From the NCBI GenBank assembly GCA_013178005.1, contig JABLXL010000005.1:1544-65543 (forward strand): a stretch of DNA of 64,000 nucleotides. Direction: 5' to 3'. Below the pieces are notes generated by a model, which ran no database searches, was not told where the DNA came from, and worked only from the letters and a program-made list of their open reading frames with translations. The position numbers and the translations under genes are program-made. The DNA is from Actinomycetota bacterium (GTDB lineage Bacteria > Actinomycetota > Geothermincolia > Geothermincolales > RBG-13-55-18). Position 1 is the first letter of the stretch; each line of letters opens with the position of its first letter. Positions 42,126-63,756 of this stretch are shown here, piece by piece.

Positions 42126-42369
42126 GCCCAGGATCCCGGCTCAGACGCCCGTCAACGGTATCCGCTTCGGGACCCTCGATCCAGCCTCCGCCATACCTAT
42201 AAGACGGGGAGGTGGTTGGCCAGTTCCCATTCCGCGACTGGGCGCGGCAGCGCTCCCGGTCGCGTATTCCCGCCGTCAGCCGGCCTTGGGGGCCGGGTCT
42301 TGGCACCCCTGTTCGATGCCGGTTTGCCCGCCGGCGCCGCGCCGGCCCTTGACCCGGCCCCCGCCATCC

Positions 42370-43698: not shown

Positions 43699-43809
43699 CT
43701 TTTGCTCCTTTCTCCCGCAAACCCGTTCACGGGTTCCGTTTCCCTGACTCCTGGATAAGATTCTCCCCTACCCGTGTTTCCATCCCTTTTCCGCACTGTT
43801 AAATCCTTG

Positions 43810-44148
43810 TTAAATGGCGTTGAAGCCGGACTCGCCGGTGCGGATGCGCACGGCGTTCTCCACCTCGTAGACGAAGATCTTGCCGTCGCCGATGTTGCCG
43901 GTGCGCGCCGCCCGGGTCACCGCCGCCAGCACCTTGGGTAGGTCCTCGTCCAGCACCACCGCCTCCAGCTTGAGCTTGGGCAGGAACTCCACGCGGTACT
44001 CCGCCCCCCTCCACATGTGGGTCACGCCCTTCTGCTTGCCGTGCCCCTTGACCTCGGTGATGGTCACGCCGGGGTAGCCCAGGGCGCGCAGCTCGTTCAT
44101 CACCGGCTCCAGGCGCTCCGGCCTGATGATGGCCTCGATCTTTTTCAT
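43810..44148 (-). CDS. glnK: nitrogen regulatory protein P-II (GlnK/GlnB)
   Basis: 112-aa PII signature (MKKIEAIIRPERL...T-loop RGAEYRV...). Immediately downstream of amtB, as expected for GlnK. Confidence 0.9.
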   Translation of the reverse strand: MKKIEAIIRPERLEPVMNELRALGYPGVTITEVKGHGKQKGVTHMWRGAEYRVEFLPKLKLEAVVLDEDLPKVLAAVTRAARTGNIGDGKIFVYEVENAVRIRTGESGFNAI

Positions 44149-44154
44149 GCTCCA

Positions 44155-45711: not shown

Positions 45712-45904
45712 GACCGGACCTCCTTTCTCGCTCGGGTCGTCTCCTGCCAACCAAGTCTAAGGGCCGCTTTTTTCGGGGGTTTTTCACGTGCGTTAAGGTT
45801 TCGTGATCTTCTCGTTTCGAAAAAGTTAAACGCGGCGCCATCTGCTCACGAGCAACAGGCGGCCGGGGGTTTTTCCCCGCGGAGAGGCGGGCGCCAGTGT
45901 GATG

Positions 45905-46012
45905 AACCCGTTACGGGGTAGGCTTCAACGCGCAAAGACCCGTCGTCCCGTTACCGCGCCCTGGACATCGCACGAATCCGTTAACGGGGCCGGCGCCAAC
46001 GCGCAAAACGCC
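45905..46012. promoter_or_regulatory. three CCGTTA(A)C boxes, two of them within ~30-bp direct repeats (CCGTTACGGGGTAGGCTTCAACGCGCAAAG / CCGTTAACGGGGCCGGCGCCAACGCGCAAAAC) upstream of amtB
   Basis: Repeats seen directly, 200-300 bp upstream of the amtB start. Candidate nitrogen-regulator binding sites. Confidence 0.4.
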
Positions 46013-46069
46013 TGGGGGTTTTATACCATGAGGAGGGATTGTCGCATGGGACGGGCGCAGCCTGGACTT

Positions 46070-46729
46070 TCAATCCGGGGACACATGCTCGAAGATGTAG
46101 CCCACGCCGCGCACGGTGCGGATATAGGTATGGCCCTCCCGCTCGATCTTGGCGCGTATGCGGCGCACGTGCACATCTACGGTGCGGGAGCCTCCGAAGT
46201 AATCGTATCCCCAGACCTGCTCCAGGAGCATCTCGCGGGTGAACACCTTCCCCGGCCGGGAGGCGAGGAAATGCAGGAGCTCGAATTCCTTGAAGGTGAG
46301 CTCCACCCGCCTTCCCCCCACCCTCACCTCATAACGGTCCTCGTCTATCTCCAACTCCCCGGATCCCACGAGGGCTCGCACGGTTTCATCCCCACCCACC
46401 ATGCGGCGGATCCTTGCCCTTATCTCCTCCGCCGTCCCGTTATCGGCGACGAAGTCGTCTATATCCACGGCGCCGTCGAGGGTCCTTATCTGCTCGAAGC
46501 GCAGCACGGCGACCAGCCGCGCGCCTTCCGCCAGATCTCGCCGCAAGCCGCTCAAGAAGCCACGCCACTCCGCGCCCATCCCCGCGCAATCCGCCAGCAC
46601 CACATCACCGGGTGCCGTATTCGCGCTCCCATGCGGGGGAAAAGCCTCCACCGAGAAGCTTTCCTCCAGCACGCCCCGGAAGAATTCCCCACGTTCCCGG
46701 TCACAATGAAGAAAGACCTTGCCTGCCAT
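46070..46729 (-). CDS. OmpR/PhoB-family transcriptional regulator with an atypical receiver domain (GlnR-like)
   Basis: C-terminal winged-helix trans_reg_C (LTFKEFELLHFLASRPGKVFTREMLLEQVWGYDYF...RTVDVHVRRIRAKIE). The receiver lacks the canonical DD acidic pocket. Sits between the GOGAT genes and amtB. Confidence 0.6.
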   Translation of the reverse strand: MAGKVFLHCDRERGEFFRGVLEESFSVEAFPPHGSANTAPGDVVLADCAGMGAEWRGFLSGLRRDLAEGARLVAVLRFEQIRTLDGAVDIDDFVADNGTAEEIRARIRRMVGGDETVRALVGSGELEIDEDRYEVRVGGRRVELTFKEFELLHFLASRPGKVFTREMLLEQVWGYDYFGGSRTVDVHVRRIRAKIEREGHTYIRTVRGVGYIFEHVSPD

Positions 46730-46860
46730 TTTTCACCTGGTCGCCAAACCGGTTATCGCCTCCGACATACGTTCGCTCCGCCACAAGAGTGAAAGACCGA
46801 CCCCCCATGGGGGATCGGCATCCGTGCGCCGCTTCGCCGTTCCGGGATCCGGTGGCCTCG

Positions 46861-47658
46861 TCAGTACGCGTATAGCCCACCGAAGGGGCGGTGCGACTTG
46901 GCGTACAGCTTGATGAAGCCGGAGCCGAGTATCTCGTCGGCTTTGCCCCCGAAGTAGTTCGTGTATTCCTCCACGTGGGGCCGGATCATCTCCAGGTCGG
47001 CTTCCGAGGCCCGCTCCACCGCGGCCTCCTTTCCGAGCTGATGCTCCTCCACCTCCCCGCGCAGGAAGATGAGACCCCCGTGCATGCCGGTCCCGATATG
47101 GCGCGCCGCCAGTTTTGGTTTTCCTTTCTTTCCCAGCCCCAACACCAGCACCAGCCCGCCGGCCATGTACTCCCCCAGGAAGTCCTGGGTCTCTCCTCCG
47201 ATGACCAGAACGGGGACGTGCTTGCGGTACTCCTTCATGTGAATGGCGGCGCGGTAACCCACGCCGTCGCGTATGAAGATCTTGCCTCCCCTCATGCCCA
47301 TGGCCACGATGTCTCCCGCGCGCCCGTGGACCACGATGGTGCCGCTGTTCATGGTGTTCCCCACCCCGTCCTGGGCATTGCGGTCCACGGTGATCCTGGG
47401 CCCGTCCATGAAGGCGCCGAGGTCATTCCCGGGCACGCCGTGAACGGTGATGCGCACGGGCCTGCGTATCCCCGACCCGATGTAGCGCTGGCCGAAGACG
47501 TTCTCGAGCTCTATCTCCTCCAGGCCCTCCGCGGCCGCTCCCTTGACCATGTTGTTGAGCTCGCGGTAATGGAGCGTTCCGGCGTTTATCCTCACCTTGC
47601 CGTTCTCTCGCGCGAACACGCCCGGCAACCCGGCATGGTGGTCCACCTCGATCTTCAT
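46861..47658 (-). CDS. glutamate synthase GXGXG-domain protein (stand-alone alpha-subunit C-terminal domain, archaeal-type GltB3-like)
   Basis: Repeated GxGxG beta-helix pattern (GIRRPVRITVHGVPGNDLGAF, GTIVVHGRAGD, GGKIFIRDGVG). Confidence 0.7.
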   Translation of the reverse strand: MKIEVDHHAGLPGVFARENGKVRINAGTLHYRELNNMVKGAAAEGLEEIELENVFGQRYIGSGIRRPVRITVHGVPGNDLGAFMDGPRITVDRNAQDGVGNTMNSGTIVVHGRAGDIVAMGMRGGKIFIRDGVGYRAAIHMKEYRKHVPVLVIGGETQDFLGEYMAGGLVLVLGLGKKGKPKLAARHIGTGMHGGLIFLRGEVEEHQLGKEAAVERASEADLEMIRPHVEEYTNYFGGKADEILGSGFIKLYAKSHRPFGGLYAY

Positions 47659-47913
47659 GTCCTCATCACCCTTTTTCGCTCACGCCACCTTTTTTTGTTT
47701 TCTTCTCCGCCTATCGAGAATTTCCCTTCATATCTCTATTCTATACCCCTGTCAAACCCGCGCCCCCGGAAAGCCGTGTTCCCCCATGGAGACCATGAGC
47801 GTCAGCTATACCCCCGCCGGATGTCCCGATGCGGAGTCTTTTCCTTATGGCACTAGCCTCCCTGCTGCTATCATCTCGGCGGGAACCCACCACCTGAGGC
47901 CGGGCTCCCTTCC

Positions 47914-49425
47914 TCAGGCGCCGGCGTGCTTGATGCCCAGGATGTCCAGTTCCTCCTGGGTGAGCCCCACTCCGCGCAGGCGCAGCCGGTTGCCGCGCAG
48001 GCTCTCTATGGCGTTGATGCCCATGCCTCCCAGCATCTCCATGATCTCGTGCGACCACCCGGTGAGCAGGTTCACCAGTCGCCGCGTCCCCACGTCGGGG
48101 TTTAAGCGCTTGGAGAGGTAGGGGTCCTGGGTGGCGATTCCCCAGTTGCACTTTCCGGTGTAGCATTTCTGGCAAACGTGGCATCCCATGGCCACCAGGG
48201 CGGCGGTGCCGATATAGACGGCGTCGGCGCCCAGGGCGATGGCCTTGATGACGTCGGAGGAATTGCGGATGCCTCCCGCCACCACCACGCTGGCGCGGTT
48301 GCGTATGCCCTCCTCCCGCAGCCGCGTGTCCACCGCCGCCAGCGCCAGCTCTATGGGGATGCCCACGTTGTCGCGGATCATGGTGGGCGCCGCCCCCGTG
48401 CCGCCACGGATGCCGTCCAGGGCCACGATGTCCGCTCCCGCGCGCACTATTCCCGAGGCGATGGCGGCGGAGTTGTGCACCGCGGCGATCTTCACCGACA
48501 CCGGCTTCTCCCAGTGCGTGGCCTCTTTCAGGGCGTAGATAAGCTGGGCCAGGTCCTCGATGGAGTAGATGTCATGGTGCGGCGCCGGCGAGATGGCGTC
48601 CGTCCCCTTGGGTATCATGCGCGTGCGGGATATCTCCGCGCTCACCTTCTCCCCGGGGAGGTGGCCCCCGATGCCAGGCTTCGCGCCCTGGCCTATCTTG
48701 ATCTCCAGGGCTGCGGCCACCTCCAGGTAATCGGCATGCACCCCGAAACGCCCCGAGGCCACCTGGCATATGGTGTGGTCGCCGTACTTGTAGAGGTTGC
48801 GGTGCAGGCCGCCCTCGCCGGTGTTGTAGTAGGTGCCCATCTCCGTGGCCGCCCGGGCCAGGGACTCGCAGGCGTTGTAGCTTATGGCGCCGTAGGAGAT
48901 GGCGGAGAACATGATGGGGGTCTCCAGTCGCAACTGCGGGGTGAGCCTGGTCTCCAGGGAGGGCTTGCCTCCCTTCCTCCCGACCTTCACCACGTCCGGC
49001 TTGGCCCCCAGGTAGGTGCGCAGCTCCATGGGCTCGCGCAGGGGGTCGATGGACGGGTTGGTGACCTGGCTGGCGTCCAGGACGATGCGGTCCCAGTAGA
49101 TGGGGTAACCCTTGTCGCATCCCATGCCCGTGAGCAGGACACCGCCCGTCTCCGCCTGCCTGTAGATGTTGCGCAACACCTCCCCCGTCCAGTTGGCGTT
49201 GGGCGGGATCTGGGTGGGGTTATGGCGCACCACCAGGGCGTTGGTGGGGCACAGGGTTACGCAGCGCAGACAGCCCACGCACTTGCTCTCGTCGGCGAAG
49301 ACCGCGTCCTCCTCCTCGTCGTACCAGTGCACGTCAAAGGCACACTGCCTCGCGCAGACCTCGCAGCGGATGCACCGGTAATCGTCCCTTTCCACCAGGT
49401 ATTGCGGCAAAATATAACTCTTCAA
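47914..49425 (-). CDS. glutamate synthase FMN/Fe-S domain protein with an N-terminal 2x[4Fe-4S] ferredoxin (archaeal-type large-subunit central domain)
   Basis: N-terminal CIRCEVCARQC / CVGCLRCVTLCP, then a GltS FMN-binding TIM barrel (ISAMSYGAIS-like: FSAISYGAIS; GEGG; the C-x-C Fe-S ligand region MGCHVCQKC). Confidence 0.8.
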   Translation of the reverse strand: MKSYILPQYLVERDDYRCIRCEVCARQCAFDVHWYDEEEDAVFADESKCVGCLRCVTLCPTNALVVRHNPTQIPPNANWTGEVLRNIYRQAETGGVLLTGMGCDKGYPIYWDRIVLDASQVTNPSIDPLREPMELRTYLGAKPDVVKVGRKGGKPSLETRLTPQLRLETPIMFSAISYGAISYNACESLARAATEMGTYYNTGEGGLHRNLYKYGDHTICQVASGRFGVHADYLEVAAALEIKIGQGAKPGIGGHLPGEKVSAEISRTRMIPKGTDAISPAPHHDIYSIEDLAQLIYALKEATHWEKPVSVKIAAVHNSAAIASGIVRAGADIVALDGIRGGTGAAPTMIRDNVGIPIELALAAVDTRLREEGIRNRASVVVAGGIRNSSDVIKAIALGADAVYIGTAALVAMGCHVCQKCYTGKCNWGIATQDPYLSKRLNPDVGTRRLVNLLTGWSHEIMEMLGGMGINAIESLRGNRLRLRGVGLTQEELDILGIKHAGA

Positions 49426-49447
49426 GGCATTCCTCCTCCGCCGGCCC

Positions 49448-50599
49448 TCAGGCCGGCTCCGCCCCGCTGATGCTCAATACCTTCCCCCCCGTCTCCTCTT
49501 CCCTGGCGGCGGGCTTGATCAGCTCCGCCACCACCGGAACTCCGCCGTGCGGAATCCAGGTATCCTTGAGGGTGTCGTCCACCAGGTGCATGGGAGCCTC
49601 CTCGGAGGAGATGTACATGAAGTCCCCGTTGCGGCCCGCCACCAACGGCCTCAGCCGGATGCGGTCGGTGAGCCCGATCATCTGCTCGCGGTTGGAGATG
49701 ATGATGCTGAAGGGCCCGTTGAGGAGCAGGGAGCCGTATGACTGCCGAAGGGCCACGTGCGCCTCCCTTTCACGCGCCGGCATGCGGTCTATCTCCGACC
49801 ACAGGGGCGCCGCGAGCACCCGGGACATGTCCTCTATGGACAGCCCGTGCCGCCGCACCAGGAGGTCGACCGCGTAGGCTATCACCTCCGTGTCCGTGAA
49901 CAGGGTGCACTTGTACCCGTACATCTCCAGGTGACGCATGTTGATGCCGTAGGAGGATATCTCCCCGTTGTGCACCACCGACCAGTCGAGGATGTTGAAG
50001 GGATGCGCCCCTCCCCACCAGGCCTGGGTGTTGGTAGGGAACCTGCCGTGGGCCACCCATATGTATCCCTCGTACTCGTCGAGGCGGAAGAAACGCCCCA
50101 CGTCCTCCGGGAAACCCACTCCCTTGAAAACGCCCATGTCCTTGCCGCTGGAGAAGACGAAGGCCCCGTCTATGAACACGTTGATGTGCATCACCGCGCG
50201 CACCACGAAGTCGTCCACGTCCTCGAGGTCGCAGGCGATGCTCTCGCGGGGCTGCAGGAAATAGCGCCACAGCAGCGGGGGGTCGGAGACCCCCTCGCAG
50301 CTCCGGGTGGGTATGACCTCCGCCCCCTCCAGGGAGAAGGAATCCTTGAGGTAGCCCTCCGTTTCCTCCTTGGCGGCCTGGTCGTCGTACATGAGCTGGA
50401 AACAGTACAGCTCGGCATACTGGGGGTAGATGCCGTAGGCGGCGAAACCGCCCCCCAGGCCGTTGCTGCGCTCCTTCATGTTGGCGATGGCGGTGATCAT
50501 GGGATCGCCGTTGAACTTCTCGCCGCGCAGGTTCATCATCCCGAATATGGAGCAGCCGGAGAAATCCTTGTCGTCCCTTACGCGCGCGCCCCTGAGCAC
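49448..50599 (-). CDS. class-II glutamine amidotransferase domain protein (glutamate synthase amidotransferase domain, archaeal split type)
   Basis: Ntn GATase-II fold with nucleophile-Cys context (GCSIFGMM). The Cys lies about 15 residues after the predicted GTG start, which implies a propeptide or a misplaced start. Confidence 0.7.
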   Translation of the reverse strand: MLRGARVRDDKDFSGCSIFGMMNLRGEKFNGDPMITAIANMKERSNGLGGGFAAYGIYPQYAELYCFQLMYDDQAAKEETEGYLKDSFSLEGAEVIPTRSCEGVSDPPLLWRYFLQPRESIACDLEDVDDFVVRAVMHINVFIDGAFVFSSGKDMGVFKGVGFPEDVGRFFRLDEYEGYIWVAHGRFPTNTQAWWGGAHPFNILDWSVVHNGEISSYGINMRHLEMYGYKCTLFTDTEVIAYAVDLLVRRHGLSIEDMSRVLAAPLWSEIDRMPAREREAHVALRQSYGSLLLNGPFSIIISNREQMIGLTDRIRLRPLVAGRNGDFMYISSEEAPMHLVDDTLKDTWIPHGGVPVVAELIKPAAREEETGGKVLSISGAEPA

Positions 50600-50602
50600 C
50601 TC

Positions 50603-51916
50603 TCACACCCCCTCGTCCCTCGCGGCTCCGGCCTTCATGATCCCGGCCGCCGTCTCTTTTATACGCTCCTGCCTGACCGAGCGCGGCAGGTGTATGTGGC
50701 CGAAGGCCTCCTCCAGGAGGAAGTTCTTCACCCTGCGCACGTTGGCCCGTTCCTGGATGAGGCTGGTAAGTATGCCCGCGCGCTCCACGCGCCCCGCCAC
50801 GAGCATGCCCACGATGACGTCGCCTTGCAGCACCACCTTACGGTAGTCGCCTCCGTCCACCCGGCGCGCTATCACCTCGTAGCCGTCCTCGGGAGGGTTC
50901 ACGACGCCCGCGGAGAGCACCGGGAGGCCGAAGAACTCCACCGCGTTCATGGAATTGCACCCCGGGTAGGGGACCTCCCTTCCCGCCATGTTCAGGCCGG
51001 CGTACTTCCCCTGCAGGGCGGCCACGGGCCAGAGCGCGTTGATGGCAGGTTTTCCCAGCACGATATCCATGGCGCTCACCGCATCTCCCGCCGCGAAAAC
51101 ATCCTCCAGGGAGGTGCGCTGGTGCTCGTCCACCTCGATGCCATGGGGACAGTCAAGGCCCGCTCCCTCGGCCAGTTCCGCGCGCGGCCTCACCCCCACG
51201 GCCATGACCAGGAGGTCGAAGTCTATCTCGCCGCCGTCCTCGAGGGTCGCCTTGCCCTTTCCTCCCCCCGTGGACTCCAGGGCGGCCACGCCCTGCCCGG
51301 TGACGATGTCGATGCCCGCCTCGCGGCACCTCTCCCAGACCATGCGCGAGGCCTGTTCGTCCAGCGCCTGGGGGAGTACGCGCTCCATCTTCTCCACCAC
51401 CGTCACCTCGGCGCCGCGCGCCTCCGCCGCCTCCGCCGCCTTCATGCCTATAAGCCCCGCTCCCACCACCAGGACGCGCGCGGGCTTGGCGGTCCTTGCC
51501 AGCATGCGCTTGGCGTCGTCCCAGTTCACGAAGGTTATGTAGTCCACGTCCTCCAGCCCGGGAACGGGGGGGATGAAGGGCTTGAAGCCCGTCGCCAGCA
51601 GCAGCTTGCGCCACTTCACCTTCTCGTTATCCGCCGTGGTGAGGGTCTTTTTCCCGGCGTCAACCGCCTCGACCCTGGCGCCCTTGCGGAACTCCACCCG
51701 CATGGAGCGGTAGTAGCCGGAGGGGCGGTAGTACATCCCCTTGCTCTCTATCTGGCCAGCCACCAGGTAGGAGATGAGGGGGCGGGAATAGCAACGGTAT
51801 TTCTCCTCCGCGAAGAGGACGATGGACCCCTCCCGATCCACGCTGCGAATGGCGTCACAGGCGTTTATCGCCGCCGCCGAGTTGCCCACTATCGCGTAAT
51901 CGTACCTGGCCGCCAT
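50603..51916 (-). CDS. FAD/NAD(P)-dependent pyridine-nucleotide-disulfide oxidoreductase family flavoprotein (probable electron-donating partner of the split GOGAT)
   Basis: Two Rossmann dinucleotide motifs (YAIVGNSAAA, VLVVGAGLIGMKAAEAA) and a C-terminal dimerisation domain. Confidence 0.7.
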   Translation of the reverse strand: MAARYDYAIVGNSAAAINACDAIRSVDREGSIVLFAEEKYRCYSRPLISYLVAGQIESKGMYYRPSGYYRSMRVEFRKGARVEAVDAGKKTLTTADNEKVKWRKLLLATGFKPFIPPVPGLEDVDYITFVNWDDAKRMLARTAKPARVLVVGAGLIGMKAAEAAEARGAEVTVVEKMERVLPQALDEQASRMVWERCREAGIDIVTGQGVAALESTGGGKGKATLEDGGEIDFDLLVMAVGVRPRAELAEGAGLDCPHGIEVDEHQRTSLEDVFAAGDAVSAMDIVLGKPAINALWPVAALQGKYAGLNMAGREVPYPGCNSMNAVEFFGLPVLSAGVVNPPEDGYEVIARRVDGGDYRKVVLQGDVIVGMLVAGRVERAGILTSLIQERANVRRVKNFLLEEAFGHIHLPRSVRQERIKETAAGIMKAGAARDEGV

Positions 51917-51919
51917 GTC

Positions 51920-52357
51920 CTATTCCTCCACCATCAACAGGGCCTCGTTGGGGCAGTTGGCGACGCAGGCCGGCACCTCGAGGTCCGGGCACAGGTCGCA
52001 TTTCCCCACCGCCTTCCGCTCAGCCTCGTCGCGGCGCACGGCCCCGAATGGGCACACCAGGATGCAGGTCCAGCATCCCACGCAGCGTTCCGGGTCGTTG
52101 ACCACCGCTCCCGTTTCGGGGTCCTTGGACATCGCGCCCGAGAGGCACGCGGTCACGCAAGGGGCCTCCTCGCAATGCCGGCACTGCAACGCGAAGGATA
52201 CATGCCCTTCCTCCTCCACCTCGACCCGCTTTACCGGCCTCCTCTCGCTCTTGAAGGCCTTGATGATGTTCTTGCTCCTGGAGTGCTGCACGATGCAGTG
52301 TATCTCGCACAGGCGACACCCGATGCAGTACTCCTCGCGAGGCACGATTCTGATCAA
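51920..52357 (-). CDS. 4Fe-4S dicluster ferredoxin-like protein (HycB-like, multiple clusters)
   Basis: CIGCRLCEIHC, CRHCEEAPCVTAC, CVGCWTCILVCP and CDLCPD...CVANCP motifs. Confidence 0.7.
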   Translation of the reverse strand: MIRIVPREEYCIGCRLCEIHCIVQHSRSKNIIKAFKSERRPVKRVEVEEEGHVSFALQCRHCEEAPCVTACLSGAMSKDPETGAVVNDPERCVGCWTCILVCPFGAVRRDEAERKAVGKCDLCPDLEVPACVANCPNEALLMVEE

Positions 52358-52634
52358 AACGGTACCACCTTCTCTTTCCTCGGGCCGGGGTCAGGCGCCG
52401 GCTCCTCCCGCCCTCATCACCGCCTGCGTCACCACGCTGCGGGCATGGAAACACAAACATAATAAATGCAAACGGGGTCTAATACCATAATCCTGCGCGC
52501 CCTCGGGAAACGGCTTGGCGGTTATAGAGGCCCTCGCTGGATCCCATGGCGGCTCGCCGTCCATCGCCGACCGGTCCCGGAGCCTCGGCTTACCTAAACC
52601 GTGTCGGGCACGGCGGGACACTCCCGTAACAAAC

Positions 52635-52663
52635 AATAGGCAATAGGTTACCTATTGCCTATT
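52635..52663. promoter_or_regulatory. perfect 13-3-13 inverted repeat AATAGGCAATAGG-TTA-CCTATTGCCTATT in the divergent GOGAT-operon / NrpR-like promoter region
   Basis: Seen directly. Lies about 20 bp upstream of a TTGTCA...TAATAT promoter-like element and about 70 bp upstream of the regulator's TTG start (RBS AAAGGAG). Confidence 0.6.
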
Positions 52664-52733
52664 TAATACGTTTTATTATATATTGTCAAGCAGAATGGCG
52701 GCTAATATTTACCGTTAAAGGAGTGAAAAGCCC

Positions 52734-53723
52734 TTGCTGGAACGGAAAACGCTGGCCATCCTGGAGGTGCTAAGGGAAGCGCGGGAGCCCCTGGGTGCGA
52801 GGGCCATTTCACAGGAACTCTCCCGCCGGGGAATCGAGCTCAACGAGAGGACGGTGCGCTACCACCTGCTGCACCTGGACGAGCGCGGTCTCACCCGGCT
52901 GGAGGGCAGGCGGGGCCGCTCGCTCACCGATGCCGGCTTGCGGGAGATCGAGGGCGCCATGGCCGTGGACAGGGTGGGGTTCGTGAACTCGCGCATCGAC
53001 GACCTCGCCTGCCGCTCCGATTTCAACCTCGCTGAGCGAAGGGGCCGCCTGGCGATCAACATCACCTTCCTCCCACTGGAGCAGGAGCGGCGCGCGGTCG
53101 AGGCGATGCGGGCCGCCTTCGAGGCGGGCTTCTGCCTCTCGGACCTGGCGCTGCGCGCCGGGCCGGGAGAGCGGGCGGGAGACATGGAGGTGCCCGCGGG
53201 GATGGTCGGCTGGGGCACCGTCTGCAGCGTAACTCTGAACGCGGTGTTCCTGCGCCACGGAATACCGGTGGAATCGAGTTTCGGCGGCCTTCTCGAGATC
53301 CGCGAGGGCAGGCCCGTGCGCTTCACCGAGATCATAAGCTACGCGGGCTCCAGCCTGGACCCCATCGAGATCTTCATCAAGGGCAAGATGACCAGCGTGC
53401 ACGCCGCGGCCACCGAGGGCGACGGAAGGATCTGCGCCTCCTTCCGGCTCATTCCCGCCTCCGCCTTCGATAACGCGGCAGAGGTCGCGGAAAGGATGAA
53501 GGAGGCGCGCCTCGGGGGGATGATCCTCCTGGGAAGGCCGGGACACCCACTTATGGAGGTGCCCGCCGGCAGGGACAGGGTGGGCCTGGTGGTCGCGGGA
53601 GGCCTCAACCCGCCCGCGGCAGCGGAGGAGATGGGGGTGGACACCTTCTCGCGCGCCATGGCCACCCTGGTGGACTACTCCTCGCTCTCCCCTTTCTCCT
53701 CCCTGGCTAGGCGCATCCGTTGA
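52734..53723 (+). CDS. NrpR-like nitrogen regulator (N-terminal winged HTH plus DUF128/NRD-type domain)
   Basis: N-terminal wHTH (LAILEVLREAREPLGARAISQELSRRGIELNERTVRYHLLHLDERGL) followed by a domain resembling the NRD (DUF128) of methanogen NrpR. The nitrogen-cluster context supports this. TTG start. Confidence 0.5.
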   Translation: MLERKTLAILEVLREAREPLGARAISQELSRRGIELNERTVRYHLLHLDERGLTRLEGRRGRSLTDAGLREIEGAMAVDRVGFVNSRIDDLACRSDFNLAERRGRLAINITFLPLEQERRAVEAMRAAFEAGFCLSDLALRAGPGERAGDMEVPAGMVGWGTVCSVTLNAVFLRHGIPVESSFGGLLEIREGRPVRFTEIISYAGSSLDPIEIFIKGKMTSVHAAATEGDGRICASFRLIPASAFDNAAEVAERMKEARLGGMILLGRPGHPLMEVPAGRDRVGLVVAGGLNPPAAAEEMGVDTFSRAMATLVDYSSLSPFSSLARRIR

Positions 53724-56217: not shown

Positions 56218-57018
56218 GTGGATCGGTATAAGCACATGGGAGAGGAGCGCGCGATGGAAGGTAGCTTCTTCGAGGGGATAACCCAGCGGCCGGTGGCGAT
56301 AACGGGCGGTGCCTGCGAGGTGCCCATCCTCTACCGCGACGTTTTCGCGGTGGCGGGGGTCTTCGCCGCCCCGACTCTCAAGCTCAAGGAATTGCTTCCC
56401 ACATCCAAGCTGGTTCCCGCCGAGATGTACCCCGGCAAAGGCCTGCTGGGCTTCATGGCGGCGGATTACCGCGACTCCACCATAGGGCCCTACCGGGAAT
56501 TTATCATCATGGTGCCGGTGCGCTATCACCCACGCTTCAACCCTCCCCTGCTGCCGGTGCTGCGCATGGCCGCATCCCTATCCTTCGAGGTCTTCATATG
56601 GCAGCTCCCCCTCACCTCCGAGCTGGGGCTTCACGCCGGCATCGACATATGGGGGTTTCCCAAATTCCTGGCGGACATCGAGATCGAGGAGGACAGCTCG
56701 AAGGTGTCGTGCCGTCTGTCGGAGGGAGGGAAGGAGATCCTCGCCCTGGAGGTGAGGAAAAACGCCGCGCGTATGAAGACCTACTTCGACTACACCATAT
56801 TTTCCGTGAAAGACCGGGAGCTCCTACGCACCCCCGTAAGCGGCATCTCCGGAGGCCTGGGTCGCAGCTTCCGGCCGGGAGGCGCCCGCCTCACCCTGGG
56901 CGAGCATGACCTGTCGCGCCGCATTCGCGAGATCGCGCCCGGGCGCAGCGTGATGACCCTTTACGTCCCGAAAGGGAAGCTCATCCTGCCGGAGGCGGAG
57001 GAACGCCTGGCGCTGTAG
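56218..57018 (+). CDS. acetoacetate decarboxylase (ADC)-family protein
   Basis: Overall ADC-like beta-cone pattern (...YRDSTIGPYREFIIMVPV...). The start is possibly at 56254. Confidence 0.45.
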   Translation: MDRYKHMGEERAMEGSFFEGITQRPVAITGGACEVPILYRDVFAVAGVFAAPTLKLKELLPTSKLVPAEMYPGKGLLGFMAADYRDSTIGPYREFIIMVPVRYHPRFNPPLLPVLRMAASLSFEVFIWQLPLTSELGLHAGIDIWGFPKFLADIEIEEDSSKVSCRLSEGGKEILALEVRKNAARMKTYFDYTIFSVKDRELLRTPVSGISGGLGRSFRPGGARLTLGEHDLSRRIREIAPGRSVMTLYVPKGKLILPEAEERLAL

Positions 57019-57230: not shown

Positions 57231-57608
57231 TCATTCGCGTGAATGCGGTCGGCGGTAGAGTTCGGCCCCTTCCGCGAGGGCGGAGGCCACGAACCCGTTT
57301 CCCTCCTCCAGCATCGACTCCAGCTCCTCGCGCGTATAGGGGAAGACGTCCACGCCGACGGGAAAGCGCGAGGGCATGAAAACGGGTATGCGGTCGAGGA
57401 AGGGCAGCTCGGACCGGTCAAGCACTATGAGGAGGTCGACGTCGCTGGAGGGCACCTCGTCCCCCCTGGCGAAGGAGCCGAATAGCACCACCCTTTCCAG
57501 CTCGGGATGCCCGGCCGACAGCTCTCCCACATACTCGGCGAGGGCCTCCCTCACCGCCTCGCGGTCAAGATACCTTATCCTCACAAAAGGAGATGACTGC
57601 CTCTCCAT
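57231..57608 (-). CDS. MNT-type nucleotidyltransferase (antitoxin of a HEPN/MNT pair)
   Basis: GSFARGDEVPSSDVDLLIV Pol-beta nucleotidyltransferase motif. Confidence 0.75.
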   Translation of the reverse strand: MERQSSPFVRIRYLDREAVREALAEYVGELSAGHPELERVVLFGSFARGDEVPSSDVDLLIVLDRSELPFLDRIPVFMPSRFPVGVDVFPYTREELESMLEEGNGFVASALAEGAELYRRPHSRE

Positions 57609-57948
57609 TGTCGATCGCCCTTTCCGCCTCCGTCCTCGTGTAGTACTCGAAGGGAGCCCCCTGGGGATGCGAGTTGGGATATCGCGGCGGGATATAGTGC
57701 TTGTCCAGCTCCTTGCCTTTTTCCAGCAATTCCTCCCCCACCCCGATCTCCGCGGGTAACCCCGATAGCAACGCGCTCACCGAATGTCCCCAAGCCTCGG
57801 CTCCCAGGCTCTGGAAAAGGGCCTTCACCGCCTTTTCCGCGCCCTGCTGCGCTGCGAAACACGCCCATTCGTAGTCCCCGTCGCGCAAGGCGTGTCGCGC
57901 GTGCTCGAGGTCTCTCCTCGCCTGCTTCAACCAGTCCCCGTGCCTGGA
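57565..57948 (-). CDS. HEPN-domain protein (toxin of a HEPN/MNT pair)
   Basis: HEPN fold helices with an Rx4-6H-like region (ARHALRDGDYEWACFAAQQGAEKAVKALF). Overlaps the MNT gene. Confidence 0.65.
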   Translation of the reverse strand, partial: SRHGDWLKQARRDLEHARHALRDGDYEWACFAAQQGAEKAVKALFQSLGAEAWGHSVSALLSGLPAEIGVGEELLEKGKELDKHYIPPRYPNSHPQGAPFEYYTRTEAERAIDNGEAVISFCEDKVS

Positions 57949-58045
57949 CGGCATGGCGTTCACCCCCACCTGATTATACATCGTCGCCCATGTGGTTCTC
58001 TCCGGCGAGCGCGATGCGGGCGTCTGCCGCCACCGAATACCGCCG

Positions 58046-59068
58046 CTAAATATTCTTTCCGAGCTCGGCAAGGATTTCCTCGAGCGGGGGCGCGCCGAAA
58101 AAGCGCTTCCCGGTTATGCCGTCGCAACAGCTCTTGTAGAGGAGGGAGACCAGTTCCTTCATCCTCGCGGGCAGGGGTGGCGGAGACTGGCGGACGAGCC
58201 CTTTCCACTCGATGCGGTTGGCCCTCTTGGCCTCCTCGACCTCCCTGCTCCATTCCGTGCCGCGGTAGAAGATCCTGGCGATCTCCTTGCTCACCGGCAT
58301 CCCGCGGTACTCGAAGCGGCATTCGTCGGGGGTGCCCAGTACGTCCACCAGCATGAGCCGGCGGTTCTCGTCGAAGGCGAACTCCACCTTGCCGTCCTGG
58401 TTCTCCAGCCCCAGGGGCTCAACGACGCTAGTAATGAGGGCGTTGATCCGCATGGTGGCTTCCTTCAATTCCAAGAGTTCCCGTGGGGACAGCCCGGCTA
58501 TCTCCCGCGCCTCCTCCCATCCCAGGTACCTGTCGGTGGACTCCAGCTTGGTCGATACGTCCAGGATGGGCCGCTCCAGCCTCTCGCCGGGTTTGGGAGG
58601 CCCTTCCAGCCCCAGGTCCTCTATGCTCACGCTGCCCTCCTCCAAGCGCTTGAACACGCTGGAGCCCTCCGGCAGCGAGTTGCGGTAGATCACCTCCAGG
58701 GGTATGAGGAAGTTCCCCTTCTCGGCGCTGTAGGCGGAGTAATCGTAGGCGTCCCCGGCGGGGCGCGGTTCCACCACGCGCACCAGCTTCACCTCCATGG
58801 TATCCGCCGGCTCCTCCAGCTCCGAAAGGCGCCGCGGCACCCCGCCCTTTCCCACCACGCCCAGATAATGCGTGGGCATCCCCATGTCCTCTAACCTCTC
58901 GAAGAAATAAGCTCCCATGAGGCAGAGCGCTGCCCCCTTTCCCTCGATGAGGTCCGGCATCTCCCCCCAGTCGAAAACGGAGTAACGGTCCGAGAAGTGG
59001 AACCTGCCCCTGCCCGGCTTGCCTTCGGAGGGCGCCTCGAGCACCTCCAGGTCTTTAACGCTTCCCAT
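58046..59068 (-). CDS. purC: phosphoribosylaminoimidazole-succinocarboxamide (SAICAR) synthase
   Basis: PurC signatures (GKVRD-like SVKDLEV...GRGRFHFSDRYSVFDW). Long-form enzyme. Confidence 0.85.
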   Translation of the reverse strand: MGSVKDLEVLEAPSEGKPGRGRFHFSDRYSVFDWGEMPDLIEGKGAALCLMGAYFFERLEDMGMPTHYLGVVGKGGVPRRLSELEEPADTMEVKLVRVVEPRPAGDAYDYSAYSAEKGNFLIPLEVIYRNSLPEGSSVFKRLEEGSVSIEDLGLEGPPKPGERLERPILDVSTKLESTDRYLGWEEAREIAGLSPRELLELKEATMRINALITSVVEPLGLENQDGKVEFAFDENRRLMLVDVLGTPDECRFEYRGMPVSKEIARIFYRGTEWSREVEEAKRANRIEWKGLVRQSPPPLPARMKELVSLLYKSCCDGITGKRFFGAPPLEEILAELGKNI

Positions 59069-59243
59069 CGACTTCCCTTTCCTTTACCAAACCAGTCACC
59101 TGCAAAGCTTGTTGTTTGCCATGCCCGATCCGGGATCATGCCCCGGCAAGCATCGGCGCGAGGTCGCTTCGCGCCTTAAGAAGCTCTTCTTTCCGCCGCG
59201 GTCGGCCGAAGCGCCTGTCCCCACCCGCAACAGCGCCCGCAAG

Positions 59244-59801
59244 TCAACCTCCGGACATCTTCCTGTAAGCCCTCGAGAGCTCGAGGTTCATGTCCGCCAC
59301 CCTTCTCGCGAACTCCCCGGCTTGATCATCCAGGTCCGCGAGGCGCAGGGCCTTCTCCGGCGTGTCCACGACGCTTCCGGATGCGACCAGTCTTCCCGCG
59401 TCCACCTCCACCCCTTCAACCACAGCCACTTGCCTGATAACCGTCCCATCCCCGATGGAGGCGTTGAAAATCACTGAGCCGAACCCCACGAAACAGCCGT
59501 CCCCTATCCTGCAAGGGCCATGTATTATGCACCCATGGGCAAGGGATGCTCTTCGGCCGATAACCACGGATGAACCCTTCAGCGCGTGGATTATCACGCC
59601 GTCCTGTACGTTGCTCCCCTCCCCTATCTCGATCGAGCTTTCCGGCTCGTCCGCCCTCAACACCGCGCATGGCCCTATGAAGACCTCGTCGCCGACGATC
59701 ACCTTGCCGACGAGCAGGGCTGTCGGGTCGATGTAGGCGCTTCCCGATATCATGGGCGATTCCCCCTGGGGATTGGGCCTTCCCTTCACGTTTCCTTTCA
59801 T
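59244..59801 (-). CDS. gamma-class carbonic-anhydrase-like / left-handed beta-helix hexapeptide-repeat protein
   Basis: Hexapeptide repeats with the His ligand context of gamma-CA/YrdA/PaaY (VIIHALKG...LAHGCIIHGP). Its ATG overlaps the PEPC stop (ATGA). Confidence 0.7.
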   Translation of the reverse strand: MKGNVKGRPNPQGESPMISGSAYIDPTALLVGKVIVGDEVFIGPCAVLRADEPESSIEIGEGSNVQDGVIIHALKGSSVVIGRRASLAHGCIIHGPCRIGDGCFVGFGSVIFNASIGDGTVIRQVAVVEGVEVDAGRLVASGSVVDTPEKALRLADLDDQAGEFARRVADMNLELSRAYRKMSGG

Positions 59802-61327
59802 CCCATGAAACCTCTCAACACCGCGGTCTCCTCCACCATCTCTGAAACGTTCCTGCCCTCCTCGAGGAGCAGGAGGATGTTCGAGGTCATGTTCCTGTGG
59901 ATAAGGTGCTTGTTGTGAGAGGGCTCCGTCTGGATGCCCAGGACCCCCTCCAGCCACTTCAGGTCCTCCTCCACTCCGGCCAGGGCCGGGAACCTGCCCT
60001 TCAGCCGCGCGATGTTCTCCCGGTTCACGAAGGCGCACGCTTCCTCCGCGTCCCGCTTGAGGTTCACGTACAAGCGGCTCAGCGACTCGCTCAACCCCAC
60101 GTCGAAGGCCTCCCTCAATGCCCTCCCGGTTCCTATCACCTCGGGGGGTATGCCCAGGGAGTAAAGCGAGGCGGTGAAAGTGATTGCGCGGGGCAAGCTC
60201 ACCCCCTTGGTAATCTCCCTGGAATACCCGAACAAGCCGGTATGCAGCCTCCTCTCCCTCCGCCTCGGTATGTGTCTCGACATCTCGATGATCAAGGGCG
60301 CGATCTCGATGATAGTGGCGCGATAGTGCTTTTTAAAGACGGCGATGAGCTTTTCCGCGTCCCTCGCCTCCTCGCCGCTCATCTCCGGAGCCCTCGAGCC
60401 CTTGGCAAGGACCCGGTTCAAAGCCTTGACCGCCTTGGTCACGTCCTCGGCGGGATGGTCATAGCGGAAGGACGACTGCACGGTGGCGGTGCGCACGCCT
60501 GGGTATTCCTCCAGGAACCGTTTCACGGTGAGCGGGGACAGGTTGCCGCGGAAAGGCACGCTGCCGCAGCCGATGATGGGATAGACCTCCAACCCGCTCT
60601 CCTCCGCCGCCCGGTAAGCCCTGGAAAGGCCCACCTTGGCCCCCAGCACCGCGGGCACCAGGCCGTAGTTGAGAGCGGGGTCGGAGCGGGCGATGAACGG
60701 CCTCACGTATTCCAGTTCCTTTATCCTCGCCAGGCCTTTTCTCCGGTAAAGGGATACGTATCTACGGATGAGGTCGCCCAGCCCCATCATGTCCGGTATG
60801 TCCTCCACCAGGGGGATTATCTCGATTATGGGAGGGTTGCCGCTGCCGATCCTCCTCTCGGGATCCTTCCTGATCAACCGCGCGAAATCGGAGTAGACGC
60901 CCTGCAGGTACACGAGCTGATCCGCCGAGGTGGTCATGGGGAGGATTATCTCGAACACCGGCGGGCAGTGCAGGCCGATGTCCTTCGCGATGTCGTGGGC
61001 GGCGAGGATGTTGGCGAAGGCGCGCAGGATGCGGTAGCTGCCCTTCTCCACCCATATATTGGGAAGGCGGTAGGTGAGGAAGATATCCCTGCCCAGCGCC
61101 TTCTTCCTGAAGTAGGCGAGATCCTCCTCGAACACGCGCTCGATGACCGCCTCGTCTACGTATTTGCCCTCCCAGTCCCACATGAACTCGTGGCATCCGA
61201 GCGCCTCGAAGGCGACCAGGCACTCCTTCACCTCGTCCCGGCTGTCTATGAAGCTCTTTCCGAGCCAGAAGGCCGCGCAAGCATTATCCGGGTGTTGCGT
61301 GGCCATGGTAGTGGGTATGCTTCTCAT
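59798..61327 (-). CDS. ppcA: archaeal-type phosphoenolpyruvate carboxylase (PepcA, PEPcase type 2)
   Basis: About 509 aa, with the N-terminal ATQHPDN motif characteristic of the short archaeal-type PEPC family. Confidence 0.65.
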   Translation of the reverse strand: MRSIPTTMATQHPDNACAAFWLGKSFIDSRDEVKECLVAFEALGCHEFMWDWEGKYVDEAVIERVFEEDLAYFRKKALGRDIFLTYRLPNIWVEKGSYRILRAFANILAAHDIAKDIGLHCPPVFEIILPMTTSADQLVYLQGVYSDFARLIRKDPERRIGSGNPPIIEIIPLVEDIPDMMGLGDLIRRYVSLYRRKGLARIKELEYVRPFIARSDPALNYGLVPAVLGAKVGLSRAYRAAEESGLEVYPIIGCGSVPFRGNLSPLTVKRFLEEYPGVRTATVQSSFRYDHPAEDVTKAVKALNRVLAKGSRAPEMSGEEARDAEKLIAVFKKHYRATIIEIAPLIIEMSRHIPRRRERRLHTGLFGYSREITKGVSLPRAITFTASLYSLGIPPEVIGTGRALREAFDVGLSESLSRLYVNLKRDAEEACAFVNRENIARLKGRFPALAGVEEDLKWLEGVLGIQTEPSHNKHLIHRNMTSNILLLLEEGRNVSEMVEETAVLRGFMG

Positions 61328-61677
61328 CCGCCGTCCCCCTATGTCCGTCCGGCCGCCGTCCCCCGCTCTCGCGGGATGCTGAGAACCTTTCTCCGAGCGG
61401 GTTCAGTGCGAGGCCTGGGTAAAGTAAGTGTCATATTAACACAGGAAAGGGGCGTCCGACAAAGCGCTTCCTCAACTAGTTTCGTCACCCTCCATGATCC
61501 ACTCGCTCCCGGGCAATGGTGCGGCCGCGGCGACGCTGCACTTTACCCCCGGCCGCCCGCACGGACGGTATCACCCTTGACCGACGCTGAGCAGGCGATC
61601 GTTGCTTTCCCCGCGAAGCGGATTTGCGGTATCGTGATAACCGAAGCGCATCTTCTTGTTATAAAGGGGGGATTCTC

Positions 61678-62100
61678 ATGACCATGATCTCGTGTCCCGA
61701 CTGCGGCAAGGACGTCTCGGACCTGGCGCCGGCCTGCCCCAACTGCGGCTATCCCGTCGCCGAGGAGGCGGAAAAGGCGGCGGCGGAAAAGGAGAAAAAG
61801 AAGGGCCTCGAAGGTTTCGTCGATTTCATCCGAAAGCAGGGCGTGGTGGGCCTGGCCATCGGCTTCATCGTGGGCGTGGCCACGGGCACCGTGGTCAACT
61901 CCCTGGTCACCGACCTGATCAACCCGATCATCGGCGCGATCGTCGGGCAGGGCAGCCTGGACACGCTGACCTTCCACATCGGAGACGCCGTGTTCAACTA
62001 CGGCCACTTTATCGGGGTGGTGATCAACTTCGTGATCATCCTGGCCGTAGTCTATTTCGGCTTCAAGGCGCTGCGCCTGGAAAAACTCGACAAGAAATAA
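61678..62100 (+). CDS. mscL: large-conductance mechanosensitive channel MscL with an N-terminal Cys4 zinc-ribbon extension
   Basis: CPDCG...CPNCG zinc ribbon, then the MscL TM1 (VVGLAIGFIVGVATGTVVNSLVTDLINPIIG) and TM2. ATG with an AAAGGGGGG RBS. Confidence 0.7.
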   Translation: MTMISCPDCGKDVSDLAPACPNCGYPVAEEAEKAAAEKEKKKGLEGFVDFIRKQGVVGLAIGFIVGVATGTVVNSLVTDLINPIIGAIVGQGSLDTLTFHIGDAVFNYGHFIGVVINFVIILAVVYFGFKALRLEKLDKK

Positions 62101-62406: not shown

Positions 62407-63756
62407 TCAATGCTCCGCCAGCGACTCTATGGTGCCGTCCAGCCCGCAGGAGGCGGTGGTCTCCTTGAAGGTGCCCTCCCACATGCCGATGGCCACCGCC
62501 AGCTCCTGGTGGTCCTGGGCGTACTCGTGGATGGGGATTCCGCACATGGTGGCCTCGATGGCCTGGCGGAATGCCCGCGCGCCCGCCGTCGGTCCCATGG
62601 GGTGGGCGTGGATGCCGCCTCCGGAGCCGATCATAATCTCCTTCCCCAGGTCCGCCACGCACACCGGCACCATGTCCGGGGTGATGCCTCCCGAGGGCAT
62701 GGGCATGGTCGGCTTCAGGTTATGCAGGGGATAGTGCATGACGTCGGCGGTGTAGACGAAGCGGTCCTTAAGGTAGGGCGCCTTGCCGTAGGGCGCGGGG
62801 AAGACGATGGCGTCGGCCCCCGCCAGGCGGGGAAGCTTGCCCAGCACCAGGTGGGAGGCGATACCGGAGATGGGCGACTCGTAGAGGGCGCCTGCGCAGT
62901 CCATGTGGGCGAGGATGGGCACGTTGATGTCCGGATCCTCGGCCAGGGTCTGCAGCGCCGGGAGCCCCACCGCCAGGTAATTGACCATGATGGCGTTGGC
63001 GCCGGCGTCCACCACCCGCTTGGCGATCTCGAACATCTTGGGGATGTTGTCCGATATGTTCACCGTGTACAGGGTGTGCTCCCCCGTCTCCTCGTAGACC
63101 CGCTTCTCCATGGCCATGTAAGCCCTGACCCGGTCCTCGCAGCGGTTGAAGGCCATGTCCGCGATGAGCTCGTCGTCCTTGATGACGTCGCACCCGCCCA
63201 GGGCGGCCTCGTAGAAGAGCTTCTCCCCGATCTCGCAGGAGTATCCGGTGCAGGGCTTGATCATGTTATTGAGCAAGGGGCGGTGCTCCTTCATCCCCAG
63301 CGCCTCGTAAATGCCGTCGATGCCGAACTTGGGGCCCCCGAAACCGTCGGTGTAGCTCTTGGGGAACCACAGGTCGATGAGCTTAATCTTTCCACCCATG
63401 GAAATATTTCCCACCACGGCGGTAAGCAGCATGGGGATCTGGTGCTCTATGTTGCGCACGGGGAAGGCCACCTGCACTACGTAGGTCCGCTCCTCCACCT
63501 CCTTGGGCACCTCGAACTCGTAGAAAGGCACCTCGTGGATGGCGATGACCTTGGCCACGTGCTTCGCCCTAACCTCCGGCGTCTCGCCCGGAACCGCGGT
63601 CCAGGTGCCGGTGGACTGCTCCACCGCCAGGAAGGGCGCCAGGTAGTACATGATCATGTCCCTGGGCAGAGCCGCGTAGTAGGTGGCGATGATGAAATCA
63701 TCGTCCTCTATGCCCTCCGGCAAAGCCTTGGGCTGCGCCTCGTAGTACAGCATCAT
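62407..63756 (-). CDS. RuBisCO large-subunit-like protein (probable form IV RLP)
   Basis: RuBisCO fold with K175-like IKP, the carbamylation motif GGCDVIKDDE and SGGGIH. The KPK second Lys is replaced (IKPC) and the R295 equivalent is Met (HMDCAG), consistent with an RLP. Confidence 0.65.
   Translation of the reverse strand: MMLYYEAQPKALPEGIEDDDFIIATYYAALPRDMIMYYLAPFLAVEQSTGTWTAVPGETPEVRAKHVAKVIAIHEVPFYEFEVPKEVEERTYVVQVAFPVRNIEHQIPMLLTAVVGNISMGGKIKLIDLWFPKSYTDGFGGPKFGIDGIYEALGMKEHRPLLNNMIKPCTGYSCEIGEKLFYEAALGGCDVIKDDELIADMAFNRCEDRVRAYMAMEKRVYEETGEHTLYTVNISDNIPKMFEIAKRVVDAGANAIMVNYLAVGLPALQTLAEDPDINVPILAHMDCAGALYESPISGIASHLVLGKLPRLAGADAIVFPAPYGKAPYLKDRFVYTADVMHYPLHNLKPTMPMPSGGITPDMVPVCVADLGKEIMIGSGGGIHAHPMGPTAGARAFRQAIEATMCGIPIHEYAQDHQELAVAIGMWEGTFKETTASCGLDGTIESLAEH

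Follow-up and report, generated by a model that had tools for sequence, protein, structure and literature searches.

In C4 photosynthesis, the entry step combines a carbonic anhydrase (CA) with a phosphoenolpyruvate carboxylase (PEPC), and the same two enzymes are commonly brought together in engineered succinate producers. PEPC takes up inorganic carbon as HCO3-, whereas phosphoenolpyruvate carboxykinase (PEPCK) uses CO2 (Table 1 of PMC10880623; PMC8100219), and the physiological roles of prokaryotic gamma-class CAs are poorly defined (PMC2914000, PMC4519908). Here, we analysed 64,000 nucleotides (nt) of DNA from an Actinomycetota bacterium (contig JABLXL010000005.1 of assembly GCA_013178005.1, positions 1,544 to 65,543 of the forward strand), referred to as the window throughout, in which pepcA, the gene for an archaeal-type PEPC (PepcA), runs on the minus strand directly into a gene for a predicted gamma-class CA:

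59798..61327, minus strand: pepcA, archaeal-type PEPC, 509 amino acids (aa), first cistron (PF14010, TIGR02751 and 3ODM matches, motifs)
59811..59816, minus strand: Shine-Dalgarno-like hexamer GAGAGG within the 3' end of pepcA, 9 nt before the CA start (sequence)
59798..59801, minus strand: ATGA stop/start overlap (PEPC TGA at 59800..59798, CA ATG at 59801..59799; TCAT on the plus strand; direct reading)
59244..59801, minus strand: predicted gamma-class CA, Cam/CcmM-like, short loop, no signal peptide, 185 aa, second cistron (profiles, PDB matches, residues, AlphaFold2 model)

An earlier note on this DNA, made from the letters alone, had proposed an archaeal-type PEPC with an ATQHPDN motif whose stop overlaps the start of a gamma-CA-family gene, with the idea that a co-transcribed CA would provide the PEPC with bicarbonate. 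The observation is confirmed: the coordinates hold exactly, the ATGA is read directly at 59798-59801, and the pair runs on the minus strand, a point left unstated in the note. Its interpretation finds support within the reach of sequence analysis.

What would such a pair do? We consider it probable that a cytoplasmic CA is co-translated with PepcA to supply it with bicarbonate, the two genes forming a minus-strand transcription unit that might extend to a third, purC. CO2 diffusing into the cell would be hydrated by the CA to HCO3-, which PepcA would join to phosphoenolpyruvate (PEP), yielding oxaloacetate. A ribosome ending on PepcA would re-initiate on the CA gene via the overlapping stop and start codons, and both proteins would thus be made together. 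Since uncatalysed hydration is slow, the CA would keep PepcA supplied with substrate, and it would hold CO2 and HCO3- in equilibrium for other steps that depend on inorganic carbon. In this scheme we infer the activity of the CA, the co-transcription of the genes, the direction of flux and the benefit to PepcA.

The first gene is, by profiles and motifs, an archaeal-type PEPC, predicted to carry out the HCO3--dependent carboxylation of PEP to oxaloacetate. In its 509-aa open reading frame (ORF) translation (N-terminus MRSIPTTMATQHPDN) the ATQHPDN motif occupies residues 9-15, and residues 4-509 cover positions 1-493 of PF14010 (PEPcase_2) at 471 bits (cut-off 25); the equivalog model TIGR02751 (PEPCase_arch) gives 495 bits (cut-off 146), so that both scores lie far above the cut-offs. 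The sole solved relative is the archaeal-type PEPC of Clostridium perfringens (3ODM, E 5.7e-54). In an alignment of 29 homologues, with identities down to 46%, TQHPD, RPFxARSDP, PFRG, RRER and the C-terminal R...G are invariant, comprising Q11, H12, P13, D14, R209-P217, P258-G261, R505 and G509. The length of the protein is in keeping with the small subunit (55-60 kDa) that serves as a size criterion for archaeal-type PEPCs (PMC8100219). Its occurrence in a bacterium is not unusual in itself: our genome scan recovered PepcA relatives in 536 GTDB species representatives, including Nitrospirota, Patescibacteria and Planctomycetota, and several bacteria are known to possess the enzyme (review PMC8100219). 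Judged by the PEPC, the nearest named genome is that of Candidatus Solincola daggyaiensis (85% identical), a member of the Actinomycetota, class Candidatus Geothermincolia.

For the second gene, profile and structure comparisons support a gamma-class CA of the Cam/CcmM kind, rather than of the PaaY, CaiE or YrdA kind, with CO2 hydration as its predicted activity. The product is a hexapeptide-repeat protein (PF00132 match), and the comparison with gamma-CA models that the earlier note had suggested came out in favour of its family assignment. The best NCBIfam family was the CcmM gamma-CA domain (153 bits), followed by the Cam-type CA (NF040597, 124 bits), well above PaaY (81 bits, cut-off 320) and CaiE (79 bits, cut-off 305), with acetyltransferase and sugar and lipid acyltransferase families below 40 bits. 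Sequence matches in the PDB gave 1e-31 for CcmM and 4e-30 for Cam (108-113 bits for structures of both), as against 1e-12 to 1e-19 (49-74 bits) for CamH/YrdA-type structures. On these scores and the structure matches below, an identity as PaaY, CaiE, YrdA or an acetyltransferase was rejected. Of the CcmM profile, only the N-domain is matched (positions 18-194 of 320; 153 bits against a cut-off of 550), and a CcmM or carboxysome role was likewise rejected, there being no small-subunit-like domain (SSLD) repeats in the protein and no carboxysome genes among the annotated ORFs of the window.

The residues expected of a working enzyme are largely in place. The roles of metal ligands, hydrogen-bond network and one of two proton-transfer residues have been assigned in Cam (PMC4519908), and in the alignment His72, His89 and His94 of the window CA fall on the ligands His81, His117 and His122; Arg49, Asp51 and Glu52 on Arg59, Asp61 and Glu62; and Asn64, Gln66 and Asn172 on Asn73, Gln75 and Asn202. 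The conserved histidines that the earlier note had wanted checked are thus kept, as is the Arg, Asp, Glu, Asn and Gln network around them. Across 121 homologues, the equivalents of Cam His81/117/122, Asp61, Glu62, Asn73, Gln75 and Asn202 are invariant (121/121), and that of Arg59 is kept in 120, with a single Arg-to-Lys exception. An AlphaFold2 model (37-sequence alignment; predicted local distance difference test, pLDDT, 94; predicted template-modelling score, pTM, 0.89) consists of left-handed beta-helix coils followed by a C-terminal helix (159-182), and Foldseek places it closest to CcmM 3kwc and Cam 3otm (template-modelling (TM) score 0.87-0.93). In contrast to secreted Cam, the protein has no signal peptide and is therefore expected in the cytoplasm.

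One further feature sets the subfamily apart. Cys91, Cys97 and Cys103 are near-invariant (118-119 of 121 sequences), spaced by six residues on the coil that bears His89 and His94, and Cam has no cysteines at positions 91 and 97. They could be a core-packing, redox or metal feature.

Homology indicates that the ATG at 59801 is the true CA start, giving 185 aa, because similarity to Cam sets in at residue 9, relatives conserve the N-terminal RPNPxGExP stretch and have no Met at the position of M17 in the window, and the GenBank PGAP annotation likewise has a 185-aa record (NPV58580.1) directly after that of the PEPC (NPV58581.1). A start at M17 (169 aa, 44 nt past the PEPC stop), as made by some automatic gene calls, was rejected, since homology begins upstream of it. 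The same ATGA recurs in five further distinct loci (L085, L086, L089/L090, L092 and L099/L100), while L005/L087 have TGATG, L088 and L097 a gap of 5-8 nt, and L098 a TTGA, its contig apparently carrying a frameshift. An ATGA, a TGATG or a gap of at most 8 nt is thus conserved in eight related loci whose CA proteins have diverged to 55-76% identity, which speaks for the overlap being more than chance. Relatives of the window locus carry GAGGGG at the site of the GAGAGG hexamer; as a sign of a ribosome-binding site this conservation is ambiguous, because LRGFMG, the conserved C-terminus of the PEPC, is encoded there.

How far does the pairing extend? We surveyed the 80 best PepcA loci among GTDB species representatives and added a metagenome scan for close relatives. 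A gamma-CA-like ORF lay within the retrieved flanks of only one of the 80, L005, from an uncultured actinobacterium with a PEPC 76% identical to that of the window. Within the actinobacterial clade, defined as PEPCs at least 71% identical to the window's and comprising 12 distinguishable lineages, the CA gene directly follows pepcA, overlapping or abutting it, in ten (window, L005/L087, L085, L086, L088, L089/L090, L092, L097, L098 and L099/L100). In L086 and L092 the pair is kept and unrelated genes replace purC; what stays constant in this clade is therefore PepcA-CA. PepcA in general does not show the pairing, which is restricted to the one clade. The earlier note had found coupling in a bacterium notable, and had asked for a survey of related genomes: the pairing is indeed conserved, in 10 of the 12 lineages, but the archaeal-type PEPC is nothing unusual in bacteria and the pair does not reach beyond the clade.

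Overlaps of four bases are widespread among prokaryotes, and this pairing belongs to a single clade, in which it has been lost at least twice; the adjacency could accordingly be neutral gene order, with the ATGA a mere reflection of compact genomes. We hold this to be very improbable, for the pair is kept across at least ten lineages while the flanking genes change, L103 (below) links the same two families in a second, different arrangement, and the two enzymes fit together directly in their chemistry, one making what the other consumes.

A number of observations nevertheless weigh against a CA that supplies PepcA, some of them concerning its activity. At 124 bits, it falls short of the NF040597 equivalog cut-off of 380. 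At the position of the Cam proton shuttle Glu84 it carries Lys75 (Glu in 76 of 121 homologues, including the closest of the window CA; Lys in 11), and the long acidic loop of Cam (Leu83-Asn96) is absent; in this feature, its residues place it between Cam proper and the short-loop CamH/CcmM type, and its turnover may be reduced. A gamma-CA-like gene that is co-transcribed with argC in Azospirillum brasilense encodes a protein without CO2-hydration activity (PMC2914000), and many other gamma-CA-like proteins are without demonstrated activity (PMC2914000, PMC4519908). The hexapeptide protein might, then, be no working CA but a gamma-CA-like protein with crippled catalysis, whose role would be structural, regulatory or in acyl-transfer/thioesterase chemistry, after the example of inactive CcmM domains, the gamma-CA subunits of complex I, PaaY and Gca1 of A. 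brasilense. This strikes us as quite unlikely. The CcmM fragment CcmM209 is active despite a short loop and no Glu84 (PMC4519908), and Lys75 therefore does not rule out CA activity. Moreover, the metal ligands and the Asn73/Gln75/Asn202/Glu62/Arg59/Asp61 network are strongly conserved in the 121 sequences, Cam and CcmM scores exceed those of PaaY and CaiE, neither SSLD repeats nor a carboxysome or complex-I context are found, and the neighbours of the subfamily in other phyla are consistently enzymes that use inorganic carbon.

Other observations concern the dependence of PepcA on the CA. Two lineages of the clade, L004 and L091, have no CA beside PepcA, and none of 82 PepcA loci outside the clade (75 with at least 600 nt downstream, 52 with at least 4 kb) has an adjacent gamma-CA, beta-class CA genes not having been searched for. 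PepcA therefore needs no dedicated CA. In L004, which is Ca. S. daggyaiensis, purC directly follows pepcA with no CA between, and about 22 nt past the pepcA stop (2362-2400) resemble the 5' end of a CA gene. This resemblance suggests a deletion, and Ca. S. daggyaiensis appears to have lost its CA gene in this way.

Lastly, the CA subfamily is found with purC in the absence of PepcA. In the window, purC is the likely third gene of the cluster:

59069..59243, minus strand: CA-purC spacer, 175 nt (1-342 nt among relatives)
58046..59068, minus strand: purC, long-form SAICAR synthetase, 340 aa (PF01259, 87.6 bits)

Against NF010566 and TIGR00081, purC scores 273 and 183 bits, both under the equivalog cut-offs. 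It comes next after the CA gene in most relatives, also in lineages without PepcA. The earlier note had placed purC immediately downstream; it is the next gene on the same strand, but across a spacer of 175 nt. Neither this spacer nor the region upstream of pepcA contains an Rfam RNA or riboswitch (sub-threshold chance matches only), and a promoter and terminator scan of the intergenic regions gave nothing exceeding shuffled expectation. Starting from the CA, we then obtained more distant members of the same subfamily (46-57% identity), with these neighbourhoods:

L101: CA-purC, with no PEPC remnant found upstream of the CA
L104 and L106: CA-purC-purA-(greA)-purD-purE
L105: biotin carboxylase ... 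permease-CA-purE-carB
L107 (Omnitrophota): GTP-PEPCK-purC-MpsC-Sua5-CA-purE-aminotransferase, gaps of 7-65 nt
L111 (997-5537): MpsC-PEPCK-purC-CA
L109 (2540-5552): PEPCK-MpsC-CA
L110: MpsC-ATPase-permease-CA
L103 (98-5408): PepcA-FolC/Mur-ligase-like-BioD-like (P-loop GTDTEIGKT)-CA-major facilitator superfamily (MFS) transporter, tightly packed; PEPC 61% identical
L108 (Methanosarcina horonobensis): none of these neighbours

PurK/PurE, carbamoyl-phosphate synthase, biotin carboxylase, Sua5/TsaC and dethiobiotin synthase, like the PEP-carboxylating enzymes, use CO2 or bicarbonate. The staphylococcal MpsABC operon, which supplies bicarbonate, has MpsC as its small third gene (PMC6689103, PMC8552792). 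Nearly all neighbours of the CA subfamily thus use or handle CO2 or HCO3-, and the recurrence of such neighbours across phyla lends independent support to the subfamily consisting of working CAs. The gene order in the window joins two recurrent associations, that of the CA with a PEP-carboxylating enzyme and that of the CA with purC.

Two side observations emerge from these loci. Next to purC, MpsC and the CA subfamily, a GTP-type PEPCK holds the place of PepcA in L107 (832-6057), L109 and L111, from Omnitrophota-like and other bacteria. In L105 (1-5552) and L110 (1-5537), a P-type cation ATPase, a fusion of AA_permease with PTS_EIIA_2, and the CA recur together, the permease stop abutting the CA start; MpsC lies upstream of this cluster in L110 and biotin carboxylase instead in L105. 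The cluster may be an uncharacterised inorganic-carbon uptake system.

The presence of CA and purC without PepcA in L101, L104 and L106 means that the CA link is not PEPC-specific. In a neighbour-joining CA tree (no support values), the group having CA-purC only is nested inside the actinobacterial clade, and CA-purC/purE adjacency occurs in more phyla than CA-PepcA adjacency. The earlier note had under-rated purC in this respect: the link of the CA subfamily to purC/purE reaches further across phyla than that to PEPC. The CA could thus belong to purine biosynthesis, feeding the carboxylation of aminoimidazole ribotide (AIR) by PurK/PurE upstream of PurC, with its position after pepcA a lineage-specific accident that brings PEPC no benefit. 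Besides L101, L104 and L106, the neighbourhoods of L105 (CA-purE-carB), L107 and L111 agree with this, and the PurE proteins adjoining the CA carry SAHRTP and AAHLAG motifs, which we take to mark class I enzymes, dependent on the bicarbonate-using PurK. We nonetheless think this unlikely. The overlap is with pepcA, whereas purC sits 1-342 nt away; L086 and L092 keep PepcA-CA without purC; and L103 ties PepcA to the CA without any pur gene. The CA/purC cluster of other phyla holds a GTP-PEPCK, which also interconverts PEP and oxaloacetate, and a C3/C4 carboxylation partner therefore recurs. In the window, purE, purK, purA and purD are absent (a whole-window search for purE, purA, purD, carB, PEPCK, Sua5, MpsC, FolC-like and BioD-like genes found none).

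A supply of bicarbonate to PepcA, to which the independent arrangement in L103 also points, would leave room for a second use. The CA may also serve purine carboxylation, namely the bicarbonate-dependent carboxylation of AIR in purine-ring synthesis. The two pathways would meet again further on, with oxaloacetate being transaminated to aspartate, which PurC would use together with carboxy-aminoimidazole ribotide, as would PurA in L104 and L106. A bolder proposal is that the short, cytoplasmic Cam-like CA subfamily represents an undescribed inorganic-carbon assimilation module that crosses phyla, and that the CA of the window organism might bind to PepcA and pass bicarbonate straight to it; we rate this improbable. 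If true, the parts of the module would be a PEP-carboxylating enzyme, the CA, purC and purE and, often, an MpsC-domain protein, with PepcA in Geothermincolia-like actinobacteria and GTP-PEPCK in Omnitrophota-like bacteria as a case of non-orthologous replacement, and its role would be to channel CO2/HCO3- into oxaloacetate, then aspartate, then purines. Binding of the CA to PepcA would amount to a minimal C4-like carboxylation metabolon in the window organism.

Several other genes of the window deserve mention. At 62407-63756 (minus strand) lies a gene for a RuBisCO-like protein of 449 aa, whose best NCBIfam match is MtnW (2,3-diketo-5-methylthiopentyl-1-phosphate enolase; 360 bits, cut-off 409), as against 260 bits for form III RubisCO. 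We considered this gene as a sign of a carboxysome and rejected it, as the protein is MtnW-like, a divergent MscL gene stands between, and it does not adjoin pepcA in L099/L100. The MscL gene (61624-62100, plus strand), divergent from pepcA, encodes a mechanosensitive channel that carries a zinc-ribbon domain fused at its N-terminus. Directly downstream of purC, an overlapping pair of HEPN and minimal-nucleotidyltransferase genes (57231-58071, minus strand) is toxin-antitoxin-like, and similar pairs occur near the CA in L099, L100 and L104. An acetoacetate-decarboxylase-family protein (PF06314) is encoded at 56218-57018 (plus strand), a position downstream of the cluster that is kept in L001, L002, L099 and L100. 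Some 5-19 kb from the pair, a nitrogen-assimilation cluster (40347-53723) contains NAD synthase (nadE), glnA, PII, amt, a response regulator, a split archaeal-style glutamate synthase (GXGXG, Glu_synthase, GATase_2 and a Pyr_redox_2 subunit) and, at 52734-53723, an archaeal-type NrpR repressor. Its proximity fits an anaplerotic role of PepcA and proves nothing.

Both genes of the pair belong to known families, are unremarkable within them and carry these names in GenBank already. We found neither a natural operon of pepcA and a gamma-CA nor an association of CA with purC/purE described in the searchable literature, and carbonic anhydrase goes unmentioned in a large review of the PEP-pyruvate-oxaloacetate node. 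The conserved pairing hence seems to be undescribed, and the translational coupling, together with the cross-phylum neighbourhood of the CA, is modestly new. Nothing is overturned by it. Conserved coupling to a consumer of bicarbonate would, however, give a prokaryotic gamma-CA a concrete and easily tested role, and the presence of the CA beside PepcA or PEPCK, purC/purE and MpsC suggests a housekeeping module of inorganic-carbon supply in anaerobic, uncultured lineages.

How does the locus compare with what has been characterised? With the archaeal-type PEPCs of C. perfringens (3ODM), Sulfolobus and Methanothermobacter, the window PEPC shares the family, the full-length profile match, TQHPD and PFRG and a monomer of ~57 kDa, as well as the predicted dependence on bicarbonate of an enzyme known from several bacteria (PMC8100219). 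It differs in being at most 49% identical to the sampled non-actinobacterial members, and in its translational coupling to a CA, unseen in 82 other PepcA loci. Cam of Methanosarcina thermophila (PDB 1QRG, 1THJ, 3OTM) is built, like the window CA, of a left-handed beta-helix and a C-terminal helix (TM score 0.90-0.93), and its ligands His81/117/122 and Arg59, Asp61, Glu62, Asn73, Gln75 and Asn202 all have counterparts in the window CA. At ~31% identity, however, the latter lacks the signal peptide, which would make it cytoplasmic where Cam is secreted, and the Leu83-Asn96 acidic loop; it has Lys at Glu84, and Cys91 and Cys97 that are missing from Cam. Its best match is the N-terminal gamma-CA domain of CcmM (Thermosynechococcus CcmM209, 3KWC; 1e-31, 36% identity, root-mean-square deviation 1.0 Å over 178 columns), which has the same short loop after the first His and is active without Glu84 (PMC4519908). 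Unlike CcmM, the window CA is a stand-alone protein of 185 aa without C-terminal RbcS-like repeats or the Cys pair in the C-terminal helix that serves redox activation, and no carboxysome genes are nearby.

At the level of the predicted operon, the argC-gca1 pair of A. brasilense is alike in that a gamma-CA-family gene is co-transcribed with a biosynthetic gene in an order conserved among relatives (PMC2914000). It is unlike in that Gca1 failed to show CO2-hydration activity and that no bicarbonate logic is obvious for arginine synthesis. The window CA, by contrast, is of the Cam/CcmM type, keeps Glu62 and stands beside a predicted bicarbonate consumer. Gca1 we take to be a CamH/YrdA-type protein. 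The DIC toolkit shares with the window the placement of a CA or DIC-transporter gene beside a carboxylase gene, here on the same strand, contiguous and conserved across related genomes; its published cases concern RubisCO, enzymes of the reductive tricarboxylic acid (rTCA) cycle and formate dehydrogenase (PMC10880623). The logic is shared with C4 photosynthesis and the engineered succinate producers, where a CA is placed beside or co-expressed with an enzyme that uses one particular species of inorganic carbon, and of this combination the pepcA-CA pair would be a natural counterpart.

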